A DNA stretch of 40,460 bases from a virus: UHGV virus genome UHGV-1390708; one strand, written 5' to 3'. The notes under the pieces are model-generated. The model ran no database searches. It was not told the origin of the DNA and was given only the letters and a program-made list of their open reading frames with translations. The position numbers and the translations under genes are program-made. This document shows, piece by piece, positions 31,890 through 40,460 of this stretch. Each line of letters opens with the position of its first letter. The stretch's first letter is position 1.

Positions 31890-33305
31890 ATGGCTACGTG
31901 GCAACAGGGTATTAATTCTGGTGGTTTTCTGGCTGGCATCGGTACGCAAAATGAGAATGCGCCAAAGGCAAGCGACATTAACGCAACGCTTGGTCTGATC
32001 CGCGAAAACAATGAACTGGCTCGCTCAGGTGCAAATAACGTTGGTCTGACCGCGTTACGTGGTCTGGCTGGAGTTGCTGATATTTATAAGCAGGAACAGC
32101 AACAGAAAGCGATTAATGCGTTCAATAAGGTTCATGCTGATGCATGGGCTTCTGGTGATCCATCGGGACTATTTAAGTTTGCCAAGGAAAATCCAGCGTT
32201 TGTTGCGCAGGCACAACAGGCGTTTTCCGGTCTTAATGAGCAGCAACGCAACGATATGGGCGATTTAGCCATGAGGGCTAACGTCGCTCTTTCTCAGGGA
32301 CCGGAAGCCTACAGTAAATTCATTACTGACAACAAGGACAGGTTAAATCGCGTTGGTGTTAATGCTGACTGGATGATTCAGACAGGTATCCAGAATCCAG
32401 AGCAGCTATCACACATGCTGACTACTATGTCTCTCGGTGCGCTTGGACCAGAAAAGGCGTTTGCTGTTCAGGACAAGATGGCTGGTCGTGAGATTGATCG
32501 CGGAAAACTTGCAGAGACAATCCGCAGCAATCAGGCTGGTGAAGCACTTCAGGCGAGAGGGCAAAACCTTTCCTATCAGTCAGCAATGACTGGGCACAAT
32601 ATCGCAGCACAACGCTTGGCTCTGGATCAGCAAGAGTTCGGGTTTAAGATGCAGCAAGCGCAGGAAAAGGCTCAGCAGTTGATTAGCGAAGCACCTAAGC
32701 TGTCAGTAAACATGGAAAAAGGCATCGAGACGGCTGTAAACAATGCTACAGCATCATCAAACTCAGCCAATTCTATGAGTGCGCTTGCTCAACAGTTCAG
32801 AGCAGAAAAACCAACGACAGGTTTGTTCGGTAACGCACAGAACATGTTCGCAAAACTTACCGGAAGCGATACAACATTGCGTGATTTGCGCATTCGCCAA
32901 AATGCCCTTGTTAACAGTCAGGTTCTTAAATTCCTACCTCCCGGCCCAGCAACGGATAAAGACGTTGAGATCGTTCGACAGGGTGCGCCAACTGACATGG
33001 ATAACCCTGAGACGGTCGCAAGATGGCTTGATGCAATGGCAAACCTTGAGCGACGAAACGCGCAGTTTAATGAGTTTAAAGCCGAGTGGATGAGCGCGAA
33101 TGGCAACCCTGGACAATCGCGTAATGGCGGTCAGATATTGGGGTTGGATGTTAAAAAAGGTGAATCATTGGGGAGTGCCGTTAAGCGGTATATGTCAATG
33201 AATACTGACGCAGCACCAGCGCAAGATTCGACACCTTCAGGAGAAACACCGAATCAGGTTGGATCATATACCTCAAAATCAGGCATTCAATTTACGGTGG
33301 AATGA
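31890..33305 (+). CDS. Ejection protein (P22 gp20-like)
   Basis: 471 aa, the same length and position as P22 gp20. Confidence 0.7.
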
Positions 33306-35428
33306 TGAAAGTAACTGCAAACGGTAAGACATTTACCTTCCCTGATGGTACGAGCACGGAAGATATTGGCACCGCCATTGATGAGTATTTTGCTGGTCAG
33401 GCTGTTCAGCAACAAACAGTTAATCAGGACAATAATGCACCAACACGGGAAGAACCATCATTGATGCAACAAGCTGGCGATTGGCTCACTGGTGGTCAAA
33501 GTGCAGGGCAAATTGCAGAACAGGCTGGTCGTGGTCTGGTAAACATACCATTTGACGTATTGCAGGGTGGCGCAAGTCTGATTAATGCAATCAGCCAGGG
33601 GCTTGGTGGCCCCAAGGTTTTGGATGATGTTTATCGCCCTGTCGATCGACCGACAGACCCTTGGGCGCAAGCCGGTGAAACAATTGGTGGGTATCTCCTG
33701 CCAATTGGCACAGCGGCAAAAGTTGCTGGAGCGCCAGCAAAGCTCGCAGGAGACATCGGTTCCGCAGGAAACATGATTGCAGGTTCTCTTGCTGATGCTG
33801 CAAATCAGGAGGGTGATTTTGCACAAAATGCTGCCATTAACGGTGGTATCAATATTGGTGCTCAAGGCGTTCTTTCAGGTGTCGGGCGCGTTATTGCGCC
33901 AAGGGTTTCACAGGCTCTTGGTGGTGCAGCACTGAATTCTGCTAATGATGTTTCTAGGATGGCAAAGTCAGGTGCTGGGCGTCAGTCAATTGCCAGTCAG
34001 GCCGCTAATGTGTCCGAAGATGTAGCAAAAGCGGCTGAGTCTGCTGGAATTGATATAAACGCATTAACACCAGGAATGCGATCTGGAAGTCGTGGAATTG
34101 CACAAGCCGAAGGCGCATTGGCATCAACACCTGGAATTGTTCAGGACGCCCATCAGGCAGCATTTAACGAAATATCATCAAAGTTAAGTCGAAACCTTGA
34201 TGAATTTGGGGCCACATCTGGAACGGCATCAGAAAAAAGTGCGGCTATAAAACAAAGGATTCTTCAAAATCTTGATCAGATGAAGGATGCCGAGCGCGCG
34301 GCATGGGATGACGTGCGGTCAACAATGCCAAATCAAAAAGCAAGAATGCTAAATGGTAATGCCGTTATTCAGGCAGAGCGATCTGCTGGCATACCGCTTA
34401 CTCCTGAAATGAAACAGTTTGTTCAGGCAAACAATCAAGGTGGAGTAACATTTGATGGCATGAAAGCATGGAGAGCGAAATTTGCTGATGCGGAGCAAAA
34501 ATATAAGCGTAGCGGAGAGGCAAATGCGGCAAGGAGAGCAGGGGAAATACGCCGGGCAATTACTGATGATATGCGCACAATGGCGGAAAACGGCGGATTT
34601 CTTGATGACTGGCAGAAAGCTAATGATCTGTCTAAAGCGAGGTTATCAGCACAAGAGAGTGCAGAGTCTGTTTTCGGGCGTGATTTGGCAACAGATGCAC
34701 TGATTACGAATGGAGTAAAATCCCTTCAATCATCGTCAGCTAAAGGTCTTAATGGTCCTGCTGGATTCCATTCTATGATCCGCGCGCTGCCAGAATCAGA
34801 GCGTGTTCCTGCTATTTCATCAATGTTGCAAGATGCTATCTCGCATGGTGTACGTGGTGGCAAAGCTGATGCAGCAGGAATTAACCATATCGCAGAGATA
34901 CTGACTCCACAAAATGTAAAAGCCATTAGCCGATATTCCTCAGAGCTTGGAAGAATTGCTGATGCATATGGCACTCTTGCAAGAGCAGCAGTGAAACCTC
35001 AGCAGTATATTGAAAGAACAGGTAGAACTGCCAATGTACTACGCGATCTGGATGCTGGTTTATCCAACGTCACATCAACAGTGTTAAATGCAATTGCCAA
35101 TTCAACATCAGGTGCCATTGTTGGTGGCGCTGGAGGAGGCATTGCAGGCGCTGCCGCAGGTGCTTTAGTTGGCGCTGGGTTAAAAGGCGCTGTATCTAAA
35201 ATTGCCACCACACGTAGTGGTCGGTATGCGATAGAGAAAGCAGTTCAGGAAGCAACTAAAGCAGTAAGAGCAGGCGGAAGCAAAGAAGCATTAGCGGCGG
35301 CGGAACGCAGATTTATGGCAAATAAGGCCGCCGTAAAAGCAATACGCGAGGCACTAGGAAACGAAGAGTTCCAGCGTTTAGCAAGGGCTGGAATTGTGGC
35401 ATCGCTTAGCGGAATGGCACAGGAGTAA
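33302..35428 (+). CDS. Ejection protein (P22 gp16-like)
   Basis: 708-aa Ala/Gly-rich protein, last gene of the ejection block. Confidence 0.7.
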
Positions 35429-35758
35429 TTAGTCATCCATGGATGGATTGAGCTTATCTCGTGTTGATGTGGCAATTTTACCAACATTTTTCAACCAAGA
35501 TTTTAAGAAGGATATGTCGTCCTTAATATCATGAATATCCTCATTCTTTATACGATCAACCTTATCCTCTAGGCTCTCTATAGAACGCTCAATGCTAGAC
35601 AGAGAGATTTTTAAGTCTCCTTGCTCACGTTCCAGTGAGGATTTGAGAGCACAATATTCGTTTTCTAGAATTCCTATTTTTTTTGTTAGAGAGTGCATTC
35701 GATACTCATACACCAAACTAGAAACGACTAATGCAGCCAACAGAAACCATTCAAGCAC
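35429..35758 (-). CDS. Small membrane plus coiled-coil protein (GTG start)
   Basis: ORF 35429..35974 trimmed to a GTG preceded by AGGAGG; this removes the overlap with the divergent gene. Transmembrane helix LEWFLLAALVVSSLVY then coiled coil; AT-rich. Confidence 0.5.
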   Translation of the reverse strand: MLEWFLLAALVVSSLVYEYRMHSLTKKIGILENEYCALKSSLEREQGDLKISLSSIERSIESLEDKVDRIKNEDIHDIKDDISFLKSWLKNVGKIATSTRDKLNPSMDD

Positions 35759-35788
35759 ACCAACCTCCTTAGTTTTGCGCAGGATACC

Positions 35789-36154
35789 ATGAAAAAAGTT
35801 AACATTGGAAACGTACCAAAAATGCTCGTTCCGCTCTTTGAGAGCGGTACAATTGTGTTTTGTAGAGACTTTCCAGAATGGCAACGCCTGCATCAAAAAC
35901 TTGGTGTGGACGTGCAGGACTCGGATGCCAACGGAGCGTCTCATACAATGAGCAGCGAGAATGGTGTTTTGCATGTGATAGGCGTGTTCAATGGCAAACT
36001 ATCTACTATTGCCCATGAGTGCGCTCACATGGCATTCGATATCTGCTCAAGGGTCGGTGTTGATGTTGAACCAGGAAGAGCCAACGAGACTTACTGCTAC
36101 TTAATGAGCAGGCTTGTTGAGTTCTGCGAGCGACATATCAAAAAGCCGGAGTGA
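35789..36154 (+). CDS. Putative small zinc metallopeptidase-like protein (HExxH)
   Basis: 121-aa ORF with 'IAHECAHMAFD' (HExxH) and a downstream Glu; no recognisable signal peptide. Confidence 0.55.
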   Translation: MKKVNIGNVPKMLVPLFESGTIVFCRDFPEWQRLHQKLGVDVQDSDANGASHTMSSENGVLHVIGVFNGKLSTIAHECAHMAFDICSRVGVDVEPGRANETYCYLMSRLVEFCERHIKKPE

Positions 36155-36170
36155 CCCGGCTTGATTATTA
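36136..36170. terminator. Bidirectional terminator between convergent genes
   Basis: Hairpin agccgg-agtgac-ccggct with T-rich tracts on both strands. Confidence 0.5.
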
Positions 36171-36347
36171 CTTTTTGCTGTCTGGAGTTCGCTTATCTAA
36201 TACCCAGCCATGACCTGGCTTTGTTGTTGGTGGAAGCCTTTCGTTGTCCTTGACGGTGGCAAAATTGTCTTTCTTACCGCCGCGCGGGCCAACTTCTTGG
36301 TATATTCCGCCGTTTTTTCCTGTGTTTTCACCTGGTTTTTTCGCCAT
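36168..36347 (-). CDS. Small basic Gly/Lys-rich protein (59 aa)
   Basis: MAKKPGENTGKNGGIYQEVGPRGGKKDNFATV...; GAGGT Shine-Dalgarno. The track's longer start was rejected. Confidence 0.5.
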   Translation of the reverse strand: MAKKPGENTGKNGGIYQEVGPRGGKKDNFATVKDNERLPPTTKPGHGWVLDKRTPDSKK

Positions 36348-36436
36348 GATATACCTCAACATGCACTCGTTATTGGGCGATTAAATATTGATCTCATTTT
36401 ATGAGTAGTCAATATGGTCCAAAAAAGGCAAAAATT

Positions 36437-36464
36437 AACCCACCTTCAGGTGGGTTTTTTGTTT
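36437..36464. terminator. Bidirectional terminator overlapping the 3' end of the Mnt-like gene
   Basis: aacccacc-ttca-ggtgggtt hairpin with T-runs on both strands. Confidence 0.5.
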
Positions 36465-36766
36465 AGCAGTTCTCTCAACTTTTCGTTCTGCTCTCTGAAC
36501 TTTTCCTGTATTTCTTTTTGCATGGCGATAACCTGGGCTTGAAGTTGAACTAGCGCATCAACATTTAGCGGAACCGAGACGCTGTTGATTTTATCTGCTA
36601 TTTCCCCGAGTGTATTTTCTGCATTCAAGGCATCTTCCAGTATCTGAACAATCTCTGAGTTCATTGATCTGCCGTTACGTTTGGCTCGTTCAGCTATAGC
36701 ATCCCGCATTCCTGCAGGAAGCCTGATATTGAACCTATCCATTTCATGACTAGGGAACTTGCTCAT
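36446..36766 (-). CDS. Mnt-like ribbon-helix-helix repressor (copy 1)
   Basis: 'FNIRLPAGMRDAIAERAKRNGRSMNSEIVQILEDAL' is an Arc/Mnt-type RHH motif; diverges from the Arc-like gene across an operator region. Confidence 0.7.
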   Translation of the reverse strand: MSKFPSHEMDRFNIRLPAGMRDAIAERAKRNGRSMNSEIVQILEDALNAENTLGEIADKINSVSVPLNVDALVQLQAQVIAMQKEIQEKFREQNEKLRELLNKKPT

Positions 36767-36801
36767 ATGACCTCAACGTAAAGATGTTCGCTAAACAATA
36801 G

Positions 36802-36857
36802 CACCAACTTGACATCAAAATAAATGGTGTTAAATTGGTTCTAGAACCAAGTTGGTA
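36802..36857. promoter_or_regulatory. RHH-repressor operator: 12-bp perfect palindrome inside a larger inverted repeat, with a TTGACA -35-like hexamer
   Basis: GGTTCTAGAACC (36837-36848) flanked by CACCAACTTG ... CAAGTTGGT; TTGACA at 36809-36814. Confidence 0.55.
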
Positions 36858-36877
36858 TCATTATAGGAGGATTACTT

Positions 36878-37051
36878 ATGAAAGATGTGCTTTACACAGG
36901 TCGTAAAAGTCAAAGTTTTCAGCTTCGTTTGCCAGCGCGAATGAAGGAGGAGATTAGACGTGTTGCTGAAATGGATGGAATTTCTATCAACTCTGCGATT
37001 GTGCAGCGACTGGCTAAAAGCCTGAGAGAGGAAAGAGCTAATGCCCAGTAA
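36878..37051 (+). CDS. Arc-like ribbon-helix-helix repressor
   Basis: Manual translation MKDVLYTGRKSQSFQLRLPARMKEEIRRVAEMDGISINSAIVQRLAKSLREERANAQ; GGAGG Shine-Dalgarno. Confidence 0.6.
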   Translation: MKDVLYTGRKSQSFQLRLPARMKEEIRRVAEMDGISINSAIVQRLAKSLREERANAQ

Positions 37052-37751
37052 AAATAGTGAAGCCCAGCAGTGCGCGAACACAAACTGGGCCTCTATGTCA
37101 GTAACCGTATGCAAGGAAACTAACATGAATATTGTAGCAAAATCAGATTACAACTTCCACGGAGTTGAGTTGGTGCCCACCCGTGATATGCATGGTGTTT
37201 GGTTTACATCATCTAATATTGCATCTGCACTTAAATACGCAAATAGTCGTGCAGTAACAATGATTTATAACAAGTATAGCGATGAGTTTAGCGCCGGAAT
37301 GACTCAGGTACTCGAAGTGAGTACCTCAGGAAATTATCGCAAAAAAGTGCGAGTTTTCTCACTACGCGGTGCCCACCTAATCGCGATGTTTGCTCGCACT
37401 CCGGTAGCCAAAGAGTTCCGCCGCTGGGTGCTGGATATTTTGGATCGGCAGGCAGAATGCTCACCGATTGCAAAACAGTTTACTGACGAAGAACTGGTTA
37501 ATCTCTGCTACTTACAATTGTGGATGGAGAAGAGTCAACAAATGTGCAAACACATCTACCCAGGAATGAAGCAAATTGGTTCTGAGCTTTCAGGAAGGAT
37601 TTACGATATTGCATATGAGACTCGCTACATGTCAGAAGAAACCAAGAAATCACTTCTTCGTGAAATGAAGAATCTTGATACCAACAATTTTGTCGTAAAG
37701 AACGCTCAGCCAATACTGGCAAAACTGCGCGGCGAGGAATGGATTCATTGA
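37041..37751 (+). CDS. ant: Antirepressor Ant (Bro-N-type)
   Basis: 236-aa ORF downstream of the Arc-like gene; Bro-N-like 'FHGVELVPTRDMHGVWFTSSNIASAL'. An alternative start at 37127 (MNIVAKS, AAGGAA Shine-Dalgarno) is possible. Confidence 0.7.
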   Translation: MPSKNSEAQQCANTNWASMSVTVCKETNMNIVAKSDYNFHGVELVPTRDMHGVWFTSSNIASALKYANSRAVTMIYNKYSDEFSAGMTQVLEVSTSGNYRKKVRVFSLRGAHLIAMFARTPVAKEFRRWVLDILDRQAECSPIAKQFTDEELVNLCYLQLWMEKSQQMCKHIYPGMKQIGSELSGRIYDIAYETRYMSEETKKSLLREMKNLDTNNFVVKNAQPILAKLRGEEWIH

Positions 37752-37770
37752 TTGGTGCGCCGGACGGCGC

Positions 37771-37801
37771 AAAAAGAAAACCGCCAGTGTGCTGCTGGCG
37801 G
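37771..37801 (-). terminator. Putative minus-strand terminator
   Basis: ccgccag-N7-ctggcgg hairpin followed on the minus strand by TTTTCTTTTT. Confidence 0.3.
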
Positions 37802-37839
37802 CCTATGTCACACCCTTACTACCACATAAGGAATGCCTA

Positions 37840-38565
37840 ATGACTTTTAAGAATGTAGCAAACATCGGATCCGTTGTCACGGATAAAACCATTGACAGCC
37901 AAAGTCTTCTGATGATGGTTAATGAAGCTCGCAAGTTATGTGGAGAGCCATCAGTACGTAACAACAAATTCATCGAGAAAATTGAGGATGAATTGGAGGG
38001 CGAGACCTACACAAAAAGTGTAGGTCGGAAAAACGGGGCTGACATTGATGTTATCTCCATGACTATCAAGCAGGCGCTTCGTGTTGCTGCTCGCGAATCT
38101 AAAGCAGTTCGCCGAACACTTGTAGACAAACTTGAAAGTATGCAGGAAGCACACATTAAAAGCGGTAAATCAGCGAGTGGACTTGTTGAGTATCGTCAAG
38201 CGCGAACATTGAAAATGACGGTTGAAGCTGTTACCAATCTGTTCGATCTGATGCCAAATCTTGCGCCTGAGGCAAAGCAGACTGCGGCAGCAAGCATAAT
38301 CAACCCGATCGTTGGTTTTAATGCAATACCTCTTCCAGCAATAGAAGAGCATTACTACTCAGCAGGGGAGGTTGCAGAGCAGCTTGGAGTAACGGCCAAC
38401 AAGATTGGTCGCATTGCTAACGCAAACAACCTCAAAACTGAGCAGTACGGCAAGTTCTTCCTAGATAAATCTGCGCATTCCAGCAAACAGGTAGAGGCGT
38501 TCCGCTACAATGCGGAAGGTGTTAAAGCACTACAACACCTGATTCATGGGAGTAATGTTGCATAA
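37840..38565 (+). CDS. Antirepressor-like protein (KilA-C-like C-terminus)
   Basis: ORF 37789..38565 trimmed to MTFKNVANIG (AAGGAA Shine-Dalgarno); the C-terminus 'YYSAGEVAEQLGVTANKIGRIANANNLKT' resembles KilA-C-type domains. Confidence 0.55.
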   Translation: MTFKNVANIGSVVTDKTIDSQSLLMMVNEARKLCGEPSVRNNKFIEKIEDELEGETYTKSVGRKNGADIDVISMTIKQALRVAARESKAVRRTLVDKLESMQEAHIKSGKSASGLVEYRQARTLKMTVEAVTNLFDLMPNLAPEAKQTAAASIINPIVGFNAIPLPAIEEHYYSAGEVAEQLGVTANKIGRIANANNLKTEQYGKFFLDKSAHSSKQVEAFRYNAEGVKALQHLIHGSNVA

Positions 38566-38786
38566 TGGCAAAGAAAAAATATGGCATTATGCCGCCAAGA
38601 ATCAAAGGAAGAGCCAGGGTAAAAGGCGATGCTGGAAGGTATCACATTCTTGGAGTTCTGTGGCATGAGAGAGCTTTAATTTTAAGTAGACCTCATGGGT
38701 ACATTGAAAAGGTATCTATAGATAGAGTAGAGATTCTTCCCCTTACACCTGAAGAAGAAGAAACGTACGGACTTTTTGATAACTAA
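38565..38786 (+). CDS. Hypothetical protein (73 aa)
   Basis: ATG overlaps the upstream stop (TAATG); AT-rich; followed by a terminator. Confidence 0.5.
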   Translation: MAKKKYGIMPPRIKGRARVKGDAGRYHILGVLWHERALILSRPHGYIEKVSIDRVEILPLTPEEEETYGLFDN

Positions 38787-38794
38787 CCAACTAA

Positions 38795-38817
38795 ACCCGC
38801 TTAATCGCGGGTTTTTT
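38795..38817 (+). terminator. Intrinsic terminator
   Basis: acccgc-ttaatc-gcgggt hairpin followed by TTTTTT. Confidence 0.65.
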
Positions 38818-39058
38818 CTTTTCTAAGGATATCAGCCACAACTTCTTTTACTCGTTCCGAGATTAATGAGGCCAGCCTCTCTTCTTCATCACGATACCCG
38901 CTTACAGGTGATGGTTTGGAGAGTGATTCTTCCATCGTAGCCACAATTTCGGAATTGATAGACCTGTTATTCATTTTTGCACGTTGCTTAATCTTAGCGT
39001 GCAACTCGTGCGTAAGCCTCAAGTGGAACTGCGCCTCATCGTATTTGCTGTACATCAT
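38801..39058 (-). CDS. mnt: Mnt repressor (copy 2)
   Basis: 'NNRSINSEIVATMEESLSKPSPVSGYRDEEERLA' resembles P22 Mnt ('NGRSMNSE...SKPSPVTGYRNDAERLA'); start at the Met preceded by GAGG. Confidence 0.75.
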   Translation of the reverse strand: MMYSKYDEAQFHLRLTHELHAKIKQRAKMNNRSINSEIVATMEESLSKPSPVSGYRDEEERLASLISERVKEVVADILRKEKTRD

Positions 39059-39190
39059 CAATGCCTCACCAAATGGGTGGAATGGCATCGTAAAACCTAC
39101 TGTACAAATCAACAATCGTACCATTTCGGTATGCAACAAACACCAACCGTAGCCATGCTGCGGCGATTCCTTGTATCTGGAGCAAATTAA

Positions 39191-40460
39191 ATGACAGATT
39201 CAATAAATGCCAATGTTGTAGTAAGCATGCCTTCGCAACTCTTCACTATGGCGCGTTCTTTTAAAGCGGTTGCCAATGGCAAAATTTATATCGGAAAAAT
39301 TGACACTGACCCGGTAAATCCTGAAAACCAGATTCAGGTTTATGTAGAGAACGAAGACGGTTCTCACGTTCCTGTTTCGCAACCAATCATCATTAACGCT
39401 GCTGGTTACCCAGTATATAACGGACAGATTGCCAAATTCGTAACTGTGCAAGGTCATTCGATGGCTGTTTATGATACGTACGGTGCGCAGCAGTTCTATT
39501 TTCCTAATGTGCTGAAGTATGACCCTGACCAGTTCCGGCAGGAGCTAGAGAGAGAGTTTGCAAGCGGGGCATTCCCTGAAACAGTAAAGTATAAGTATGG
39601 ATTACCATCTGTTGTTGATGGTGCCGTATACAGAACTGTTCAGGATAAGCTTGATGATTTTGTGTTCCTTGAGGATTTCGGAGGAAAAGACGACGGAGGT
39701 ATTACTGATAACTCTTTAGCATTTAAGAAGGCGTTTGCATCAGGTGCTAAGAAAATTTATCTCAGAGGATCTGGTGTTTATGCCATGGCTACTCGTGATA
39801 TTGAGTTGCCTGCCAGGTATGAAATTATAGGTAATGCAAAAAATCCAGAGATTAAATATCTAGGTTCTGATTCAACCTTCACTATGTTTACCCTTACAGG
39901 GTCTGGCCCGGCTGCTAGTCAGTGGAAACAGGGTGGCATCTTTAGGGATGTGATCATTTCATCTGATACAGTAATTAACTGGATGGTTTGCCGACATGTC
40001 CAGAACTTAGATTTCGACAGAGTGTACTTTTACAACTCAAGAACTTTAATGAACAACTATCACTATGTTAACTTCTTTAGATGTGAACGTTGGTCGAGCG
40101 GATTTGAAGGCAGATCAGACCTTAACACAGTAAATTTCATTAGCGAGTCTCCAAAATTTTTGATGTGCTTTAGCTCAAACTCACCTATAGATGTTTGGGA
40201 TACAGCAGACCTTAGTATCACTTTCTGCACCTTTTTTGCGGGAGATTATGCAGTACAGACTAAAGTTACTCTGGTATCGCCAACAGCGCTGGACCAATTT
40301 GCTGGATACCAGGTATTTATATCCAACTCTGTTTTTGATGCAGTTTCTGGTAGCGCATGGTTACTTAACGGCATTGCGTACGGATCTATCATTGGTAACT
40401 TTGTGTCATCTGGGCGTGATGCGACAGCTTCCGGTGCTGTTGTTGATGGTGTCCGTTCAA
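39191..40460 (+). CDS. Tailspike protein (3' end truncated by the window)
   Basis: N-terminus 'ANVVVS...[35 protein letters not shown]...VLKYDPDQ' matches the P22 tailspike head-binding domain from memory; the downstream domain differs from P22; no stop before the window end. Confidence 0.85.

Follow-up and report, generated by a model that had tools for sequence, protein, structure and literature searches.

The ant moron of a P22-like Escherichia coli phage is probably a mosaic of two self-contained repressor-operator units

The viral genome UHGV-1390708 (40,460 nt; the whole stretch of DNA analysed here, referred to as the window) belongs to a P22-like (Lederbergvirus) phage or prophage of Escherichia coli. 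Between the gene for a homologue of the gene 16 ejection protein (33302-35428) and the tailspike gene lies the slot that holds the immI region in P22, named the 'ant moron' by Villafane et al. 2008 (PMC2629481), and the repressor genes, antirepressor genes and operators in this slot are the subject of the present analysis. Gene coordinates were based on the open reading frame (ORF) list and the sequence of the window (Table 1). Approximately 90 related loci, cited here by L numbers where they need to be told apart, were compared overall, with comparisons of the left end and of cassettes drawn from viral and E. coli collections. As stated in the initial annotation, two leftward genes encoding ribbon-helix-helix (RHH) proteins, designated mnt1 and mnt2, are present together with an arc-like gene and an antirepressor gene, ant1. 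These are accompanied by a second ant-type gene, ant2, and by orf73, which is optional as it is missing from many otherwise identical loci. Among 5426 complete E. coli genomes, 19 were found to carry the full architecture (95-99% identity). One of these is the genome of strain 55989, where the copy has three 'Arc family DNA-binding proteins' in the NCBI annotation.

Table 1. Genes and predicted regulatory features in and around the ant moron of the window.
Feature	Position	Strand	Description
Bidirectional terminator hairpin, mnt1 3' end	36437..36456		Terminator scan match on both strands; homologous to P22 mnt terminator; marks left mosaic junction
mnt1	36446..36766	-	106 aa; Arc-family RHH repressor with distinct long C-terminal helix; positional analogue of P22 mnt
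Upstream half-site H0 AGCACCAA	36800..36807	+	Immediately 5' of -35 hexamer
Pant-like promoter TTGACA-16-TAAATT	36809..36836	+	TG precedes -10 hexamer; 10/12 consensus, top score in region
Perfect 16-bp palindrome TTGGTTCTAGAACCAA	36835..36850		Putative Mnt1 operator over predicted start site
Third half-site H3 TTGGTATC	36852..36859	-	With 36843-36850 gives ACC-N5-GGT, the geometry of P22 Omnt
arc-like gene	36878..37051	+	57 aa; first gene of rightward operon
Candidate sar-like antisense RNA 1	37052..37124	-	Spans ant1 ribosome-binding site
ant1	37125..37751	+	208 aa; antirepressor, Bro-N and P22_AR_C domains
Candidate sar-like antisense RNA 2	37770..37845	-	Spans ant2 ribosome-binding site and start codon
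ant2	37840..38565	+	241 aa; PHROG 1726 'anti-repressor'
orf73	38565..38786	+	73 aa; PHROG 4977 (family labelled function-unknown)
Terminator hairpin	38793..38814		Between convergent orf73 and mnt2; overlaps last mnt2 codons
mnt2	38801..39058	-	85 aa; full-length P22 Mnt homologue, 'orphan' type beside tailspike gene
Putative Pmnt2	39087..39115	-	-35 TTGTTG (39115..39110), 17 nt, -10 TACGAT (39092..39087); homology to P22 Pmnt TTGAGA-17-TATCAT
Putative Mnt2 operator GTACCATTTCGGTAT	39118..39132		Core TACC-N5-GGTA at 39119-39131; 2 nt upstream of Pmnt2 -35
Tailspike gene, P22 gene 9 homologue	39191..40460	+	Head-binding N-terminal domain; divergent from mnt2; runs off window

The two RHH proteins differ in their relationship to P22 Mnt. 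Mnt2 matches the Pfam Arc family (PF03869, 9.9e-15) and PHROG 795, and is 48% identical to P22 Mnt (residues 7-79 against Mnt 4-76), through the linker and the C-terminal tetramerisation helix; its match to structure 1MNT (8e-17) extends over chain residues 3-75. Mnt1 also matches Pfam Arc (PF03869, E = 1.6e-20) but falls in a separate PHROG (phrog_1287), and its 54% identity to P22 Mnt covers 37 residues of the RHH part only. The similarity to Mnt is confined to residues 10-51 of Mnt1, and all PDB alignments end by residue 54. For residues 69-102, one long helix is predicted (predicted local distance difference test, pLDDT, ~83), and this C-terminal segment is not homologous to that of Mnt. 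As modelled, the C-terminus of Mnt1 would therefore be analogous to that of Mnt in design and unrelated to it in sequence. An alignment of the two repressors with each other gave 38% identity over 45 residues of the RHH part, with nothing shared in the C-termini. The initial description of both as Mnt-type repressors thus holds for the whole length of Mnt2 and for the RHH part of Mnt1, and the different PHROGs and unrelated C-termini argue against a duplicated immI.

The mnt1 gene is divergent from arc and ant1, and a symmetric palindrome lies at the predicted start site of the ant promoter. The 12-mer GGTTCTAGAACC at 36837-36848, which had been recognised as a perfect palindrome nested in a larger inverted repeat, is the core of the perfect 16-bp palindrome TTGGTTCTAGAACCAA, and the symmetry extends outward to 20/22 matching positions. 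This is the sole perfect 16-bp palindrome in the window, as compared with 0.65 per 40 kb expected from shuffled sequences. It begins within the -10 hexamer of the Pant-like promoter, giving the same layout as in P22 Pant, where the operator follows straight after the -10 hexamer. Half-sites of the form ACCAA/TTGGT occur four times in 72 bp (0.19 expected).

The related loci revealed that these sites vary together with the left-hand repressor. The 16-bp palindrome is co-inherited with the β-strand RFNIRLP, across loci that differ in the C-terminal domain of the repressor. In loci encoding an RFTVR strand, the palindrome is replaced by ATGACATCA-N3-TGATGTCAT and half-site H0 changes from AGCACCAA to AGCATCAT. 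In the Klebsiella phage KP12, an RFN(V/I)RLP strand is kept, together with the palindrome as TTGGTTtTAGAACCAA (one change) and the upstream AGCACCAA, and half-site H3 is lost; H3 is probably secondary. Because it covaries with the repressor type and is kept in KP12, the 16-bp palindrome is taken as the putative main operator of Mnt1. The site at 36843-36859, which has the geometry of the P22 operator, was also considered as the primary Mnt1 operator and was rejected, as its right arm is lost in KP12 and the 16-bp palindrome is kept. At least three specificities, each an operator with its strand, can be read from the Mnt1-lineage series.

The left regulator differs between loci with 95-99% identity to one another from arc or ant1 rightwards. 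One type encodes a 127-aa protein that shares its N-terminus and the palindrome with the window and has another C-terminal domain. In a second type, the RFTVR-strand RHH protein stands beside the ATGACATCA-N3-TGATGTCAT palindrome, and in a third, a helix-turn-helix (HTH; C2-like) repressor is found, alongside another small RHH protein and repeats of unrelated sequence. The Arc-like protein (Pfam Arc, 8.3e-12; 34% identity to P22 Arc in the alignment) is the same (96-100% identity) in loci with the 127-aa-type and the RFTVR-type left repressors. As the same Arc sits beside different operators, the covarying sites belong to the left-hand repressor and not to Arc, and the palindromes were excluded as an Arc site on the same grounds. 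These comparisons support the view that the stretch from mnt1 to ant1 is a cassette, the left repressor and operator of which would be swapped as a block.

The elements common to all cassette types, TTGACAT and an ATGG-N7-(A/T)TGG repeat around the -10 hexamer, could not be assigned to Arc. The latter is a direct repeat of 11-bp period that flanks the ant promoter -10 hexamer on both sides (36824-36838 in the window). It occurs at the same position in L004, L052, L087, L091 and L092, in every cassette type and with any Mnt1 or Arc variant. It may be an Arc site or part of the promoter.

Exchange has also taken place within mnt1, where mosaic breakpoints lie after codon 18 and after approximately codon 25. 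The homologue in an Stx phage (L087 3001-3321) has 50% nucleotide identity over codons 1-18 and 96.6% from codon 19, and the gene for the 127-aa variant (L034 5827-6210) is ~99% identical over the first ~75 nt and then unrelated. Given these sharp joints inside the gene, the operator with the recognition strand, the helices, and the C-terminal domain would constitute three exchangeable modules. In Stx-converting phages, the Mnt1-Arc-Ant cassette is placed among the tail genes, and the Mnt1 version found there has the strand KFNLRF and GCCA-type half-sites. At the left end of the region in the window, nucleotide similarity to P22/SE1 stops at ~36462. The swappable cassette, its version among Stx tail genes and the orphan mnt of ST64T/L/SE1 type beside gene 9 support the suggestion in the initial annotation of a hybrid produced by recombination between two phages.

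In many sister prophages, an HTH repressor and a different 57-aa RHH protein are found in place of Mnt1 and Arc (L005 1593-2507; L001 3093-4007; L071 2717-3848). The HTH protein is annotated as C2-like in JEP4, and the version in L071 shows a GDSM peptidase-type motif. Variants of this type may couple ant expression to cleavage of the repressor.

Ant1 includes Bro-N (1.9e-10) and P22_AR_C (2.5e-14) domains identified by Pfam, matches PHROG 245 'anti-repressor Ant' at 1e-53 and is 29% identical to the C-terminus of P22 Ant. Ant2 matched PHROG 1726 at 1e-101. No Pfam or NCBIfam family was found for Ant2 even at E = 10, except for a weak HTH hint, there was no PDB sequence match and no similarity to P22 Ant, and the single-sequence AlphaFold model was unusable (pLDDT 37). 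The ratio of non-synonymous to synonymous substitution rates (dN/dS) for ant2 is 0.02-0.13. Insertions of ~1.1-1.2 kb disrupt ant2 in some prophages (L010 4718-5957; L042 4569-5652; E. coli hit H39, under which an IS3-family transposase is annotated), and because of these insertions ant2 is considered dispensable for prophage maintenance in those strains.

Each ant gene appears to have its own sar-like antisense RNA. The region of candidate RNA 1 aligns with the arc-ant/sar region of P22 and includes an extended -10 element, TGcTACAAT, at 37139..37131, inside the first codons of ant1. Its predicted two-hairpin fold has z = -6.4, as compared with z = -4.9 for P22 sar, and a compensatory change from A-U to G-C is seen in the terminator stem between loci. 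For candidate RNA 2, the promoter and terminator scans identified GTGACA-17-TACATT (37880..37852) as a promoter and 37804..37778 as a terminator, both on the minus strand. The two elements are kept even in the diverged loci L053 and L080-82, and a two-hairpin fold is again predicted, with z = -2.1. For each candidate, the predicted promoter falls within the initial codons of the ant gene and the terminator in the spacer that precedes it.

To compare operators for Mnt2, 80 viral contigs encoding Mnt2 relatives were taken, and the 170 nt upstream of each mnt2 were examined. All proteins with a QFHLRL strand, as in the window, have (G/A)TACC-N5-GGTA(C/T) located 73 nt before the mnt2 ATG, and the site is perfect in 49/49 close loci scanned. 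The core of GTACCATTTCGGTAT is the sole perfect TACC-N5-GGTA in the 40-kb window. Relatives with a QFNLRL strand, including that of ST64T, have AAGACCAC-N-GTGGTCTT at the same position (GACCAC-N-GTGGTC), and P22, with the strand HFNFRM, has AGGTCCACGGTGGACCT (GTCCAC-G-GTGGAC). The series therefore includes at least three Mnt-lineage specificities of operator and β-strand. In the upstream alignment of the window, ST64T, P22 and others, the operator is followed by 2 bases, a -35 hexamer (TTGTTG/TTGTGG/TTGAGA), 17 nt and a -10 hexamer (TACGAT/TATGAT/TATCAT), and on this alignment the mnt2 upstream region is homologous to P22 Omnt/Pmnt. The counterpart on the opposite strand of the strong P22 Pant is degenerate here (ATGGCA-16-ACAAAT).

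The mnt2 frame is open for 27 codons further upstream (MLHTEMVRLLICTVGFTMPFHPFGEAL…; 39059-39139 on the minus strand of the window). In some relatives (L054, L056, L070, L071 and L073 were noted), this extension starts with ATG, giving a 107-aa ORF over the operator and the putative promoter. The open frame probably just reflects conserved regulatory DNA.

The divergent gene across the Mnt2 operator is the tailspike gene, with no arc or ant between, unlike the arrangement for a maintenance repressor of ant. The mnt2 and tailspike genes are divergent and 116-255 nt apart in 75 of the 80 loci, and in the window the operator lies 59 nt 5' of the gene 9 start codon. In several phages, no gene other than mnt2 lies between those for the ejection protein and the tailspike. 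In L071 (411-671), an 86-aa C-terminal fragment of a P22-type ant (~93% identity) is found between the Mnt2 operator and gene 9. This fragment resembles a leftover of the deletion through which mnt2 became an orphan, as would be expected if an ancestral immI had lost arc-ant.

The ant moron of the window is therefore probably a mosaic of two self-contained repressor-operator units and not one expanded circuit. Features observed directly on which this reading is built are the fold and family of the proteins, the positions of the genes, the uniqueness and conservation of the palindromes, the covariation of operators with recognition strands, the modular exchange and the purifying selection. Unit 1 (36437 to ~38814) would be a mobile antirepressor cassette, built like P22 immI. 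The strong rightward promoter would drive expression of arc, ant1, ant2 and orf73, up to the hairpin between orf73 and mnt2, and Mnt1 bound to the 16-bp palindrome at the start site and to the flanking ACCAA half-sites would keep the operon off in the lysogen. Arc would be responsible for an early autogenous shut-off after infection, as in P22, and a separate sar-like antisense RNA would further reduce the expression of each ant gene. Unit 2 (38801-39132) would represent a P22 mnt homologue whose arc-ant partner was lost. Binding of Mnt2 to the TACC-N5-GGTA site, just 5' of the -35 hexamer of its own weak promoter and centred ~45 nt upstream of its own predicted start as for Mnt in P22, would lead to autoregulation. 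Bound Mnt2 would also occlude the decayed Pant remnant, or the start region of a residual rightward promoter, aimed at gene 9.

A number of points weigh against this reading. The functional assignments for the components of both units are drawn from sequence and P22 precedent, and repressor binding, the activity of the promoters, synthesis of the RNAs and the physiological function of Mnt2 are likewise predicted. The PHROG label is the one pointer to an antirepressor function for Ant2. A search of 35400-39400 against Rfam (E <= 1) gave no match to the sar family, only terminator-like fragments of sroH. An Arc operator was not found, and identical Arc proteins are next to differing operator sets. 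The promoter scan of the region identified the ant promoter and that of candidate RNA 2 and no promoter for mnt1 or mnt2; for Pmnt1 there was none above the threshold and it was not located, and Pmnt2, being below the threshold, was placed by its homology to P22 Pmnt. Finally, AACCAAGTTGGTA (36845-36857), a Mnt2-type site with one mismatch, is present in the ant promoter of exactly the cassette type carried by the window.

This last site is central to the layered control of the antirepressor suggested in the initial annotation, in which Mnt2 would be a second maintenance repressor of the ant promoter, acting on the ACC-N5-GGT site at 36843-36859 next to or overlapping the site of Mnt1. The mismatch to the Mnt2 core leaves the 8-bp spacing of the arms the same, the right half GATACCAA resembles CATACCAA, a natural variant of the Mnt2 half-site in L069 and L072, and only ~0.014 such sites are expected by chance per 100-bp region. 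However, the site is limited to loci with an RFNIR-type Mnt1, and ACCAA, the half-site of Mnt1, supplies its sequence. The right arm is not constant between loci (TTGGCATC in L026 and L034), in addition to its loss in KP12. Near-identical Mnt2 proteins (98-100%) occur in RFTVR and HTH loci without it, and with three unrelated ant-promoter regions lacking such a site, and many phages encode Mnt2 and no ant gene, with no recognisable antirepressor in 27 of the 80 loci. The sole Mnt2 operator conserved everywhere is in the promoter region of mnt2 itself, by the tailspike gene, and layered control is accordingly considered unlikely. It is also unlikely that Mnt2 is instead a decaying remnant of a lost immI with no present function, a possibility raised for the mnt-like gene in phage L, the role of which was stated to be unknown (PMC8022706). 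A remnant would explain why the arc-ant partners are gone, why the rightward Pant-like hexamers by the operator have degenerated and why L071 has a piece of ant at this position. The mnt gene, of whichever type, in Kapi1, a related P22-like phage, also had no detectable expression in lysogens in a transcriptome study (PMC12922286). On the other hand, the mnt2 ORF is intact in all 80 loci, with dN/dS of 0.10-0.21 where synonymous sites are unsaturated, and the perfect operator arms in the close loci, the covariation of operator and recognition strand in distant ones, and the retention of the mnt2 unit as a sole moron gene in several phages are all at odds with decay. Neither mnt1 nor mnt2 turned out to be a pseudogene or to encode an unrelated fold, an outcome which would have undermined the initial annotation.

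It is possible, if doubtful, that Mnt2 has been retained because it acts beyond its own cassette. Mnt2 could set the level of transcription into the tailspike gene, whether this starts at the Pant remnant or reads through from the ant and late operons. Alternatively, it could provide immunity in trans against superinfecting relatives with a matching operator at the ant promoter. The P22 ant moron has been reported to affect tailspike levels, possibly via Mnt and Arc (PMC2629481, citing its reference 76), and the position of mnt2 nearly always beside gene 9, with the operator so close to the gene 9 start codon, would fit such an effect. The series of at least three specificities is as expected of immunity-type diversification. 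However, no ant promoter with a TACC-N5-GGTA operator was found among the loci examined, and the rightward promoter is weak by consensus. In addition, a small RHH tetramer is unlikely to block antiterminated late transcription. It is tentatively proposed that the orphan unit of Mnt2 and its operator is autonomous and under active selection. Such a module would gate transcription into the tailspike gene or protect the lysogen in trans from the antirepressors of superinfecting relatives, and in the cassette combination found here Mnt2 may in addition bind to the near-cognate site of the ant promoter.

To the left of the cassette, a leftward 181-aa ORF (35429-35974) matches the hkcB family of HK620 in its C-terminal 109 residues only. 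In the part that encodes its long N-terminal extension, the ORF overlaps the plus-strand hkcC homologue (35789-36154), and its real start is probably internal.

In the survey of the slot that gave it its name, ten types of ant moron were recognised in sixteen genomes, among them mnt-only morons (ST64T, ST104) and E. coli types such as that of CUS-3, with ant genes and no recognised arc (PMC2629481). No paper was found on a composite with two repressors, on the Mnt2 operator or on paired sar-like RNAs, though full-text coverage was incomplete. The locus represents a mosaic version of an immunity region well known from phages, and no component is new in kind. Its main value is comparative, and the result is useful rather than surprising. 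The window locus and its relatives form a natural series of joint exchanges of recognition strand and operator, with recombination joints that fall within the repressor gene. The series offers ready test cases for rules of RHH recognition. The purifying selection and the co-evolving operator of the orphan mnt argue against the view of a degrading remnant, and any confirmed role of Mnt2 would answer the question of why L and ST64T keep mnt without ant. As the architecture is present in many E. coli prophages, such as that of strain 55989, it is also relevant that antirepressor cassettes of this kind influence prophage induction.

The P22 immI region is a textbook switch, and its Arc and Mnt proteins are model DNA-binding proteins. 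The region in the window shares with it the slot between genes 16 and 9. In both, an RHH repressor gene is divergent from an operon that includes arc and ant, and a symmetric operator directly follows the -10 hexamer of a strong promoter. A sar-like antisense RNA is also predicted at the ant start here, the C-terminal domain of Ant1 is P22_AR_C, and both mnt2 and the sequence upstream of it have homologues in P22, namely mnt and Omnt/Pmnt. However, the C-terminal half of Mnt1, the repressor facing arc-ant here, lacks homology to Mnt. The window also has two ant-type genes with one antisense RNA candidate each, and the true Mnt homologue has moved to the far end, where it is convergent with the operon and faces gene 9. 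Both operator sequences of the window are also unlike those of P22.

The orphan mnt of ST64T, L and SE1 resembles mnt2 in encoding a Mnt homologue divergent from the tailspike gene across ~130 bp, with a spacer that includes a symmetric operator of 17-bp type and Pmnt-like hexamers, and in having no arc or ant under its control. Mnt of ST64T is 51% identical to Mnt2 of the window, and the two differ in the strand (QFNLR in the former, QFHLR here) and in the operator (GACCAC-N-GTGGTC and TACC-N5-GGTA, respectively). Furthermore, a complete second antirepressor cassette lies directly downstream of mnt2 in the window.

The cassettes of Stx-converting and other lambdoid phages (for example, Stx2a_WGPS8, SPN3UB and Klebsiella KP12) share the three-gene layout and the promoter architecture. 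From residue 19 to its end, Mnt1 of the Stx cassette has the same sequence as Mnt1 of the window. The differences are in the N-terminal strand, KFNLRF, and the associated GCCA-type half-sites. KP12 has its β-strand and palindrome in common with the window. These cassettes are sited among tail genes or elsewhere, not by a P22-type tailspike gene, and have no second mnt adjacent. In the ant moron of CUS-3/JEP4 type, from E. coli P22-like phages, the run of ant1, ant2, orf73, mnt2 and tailspike gene is 95-99% identical to that of the window. Its left regulator, by contrast, is a C2-like HTH repressor, which is accompanied by another small RHH protein, and the operators are not the same.

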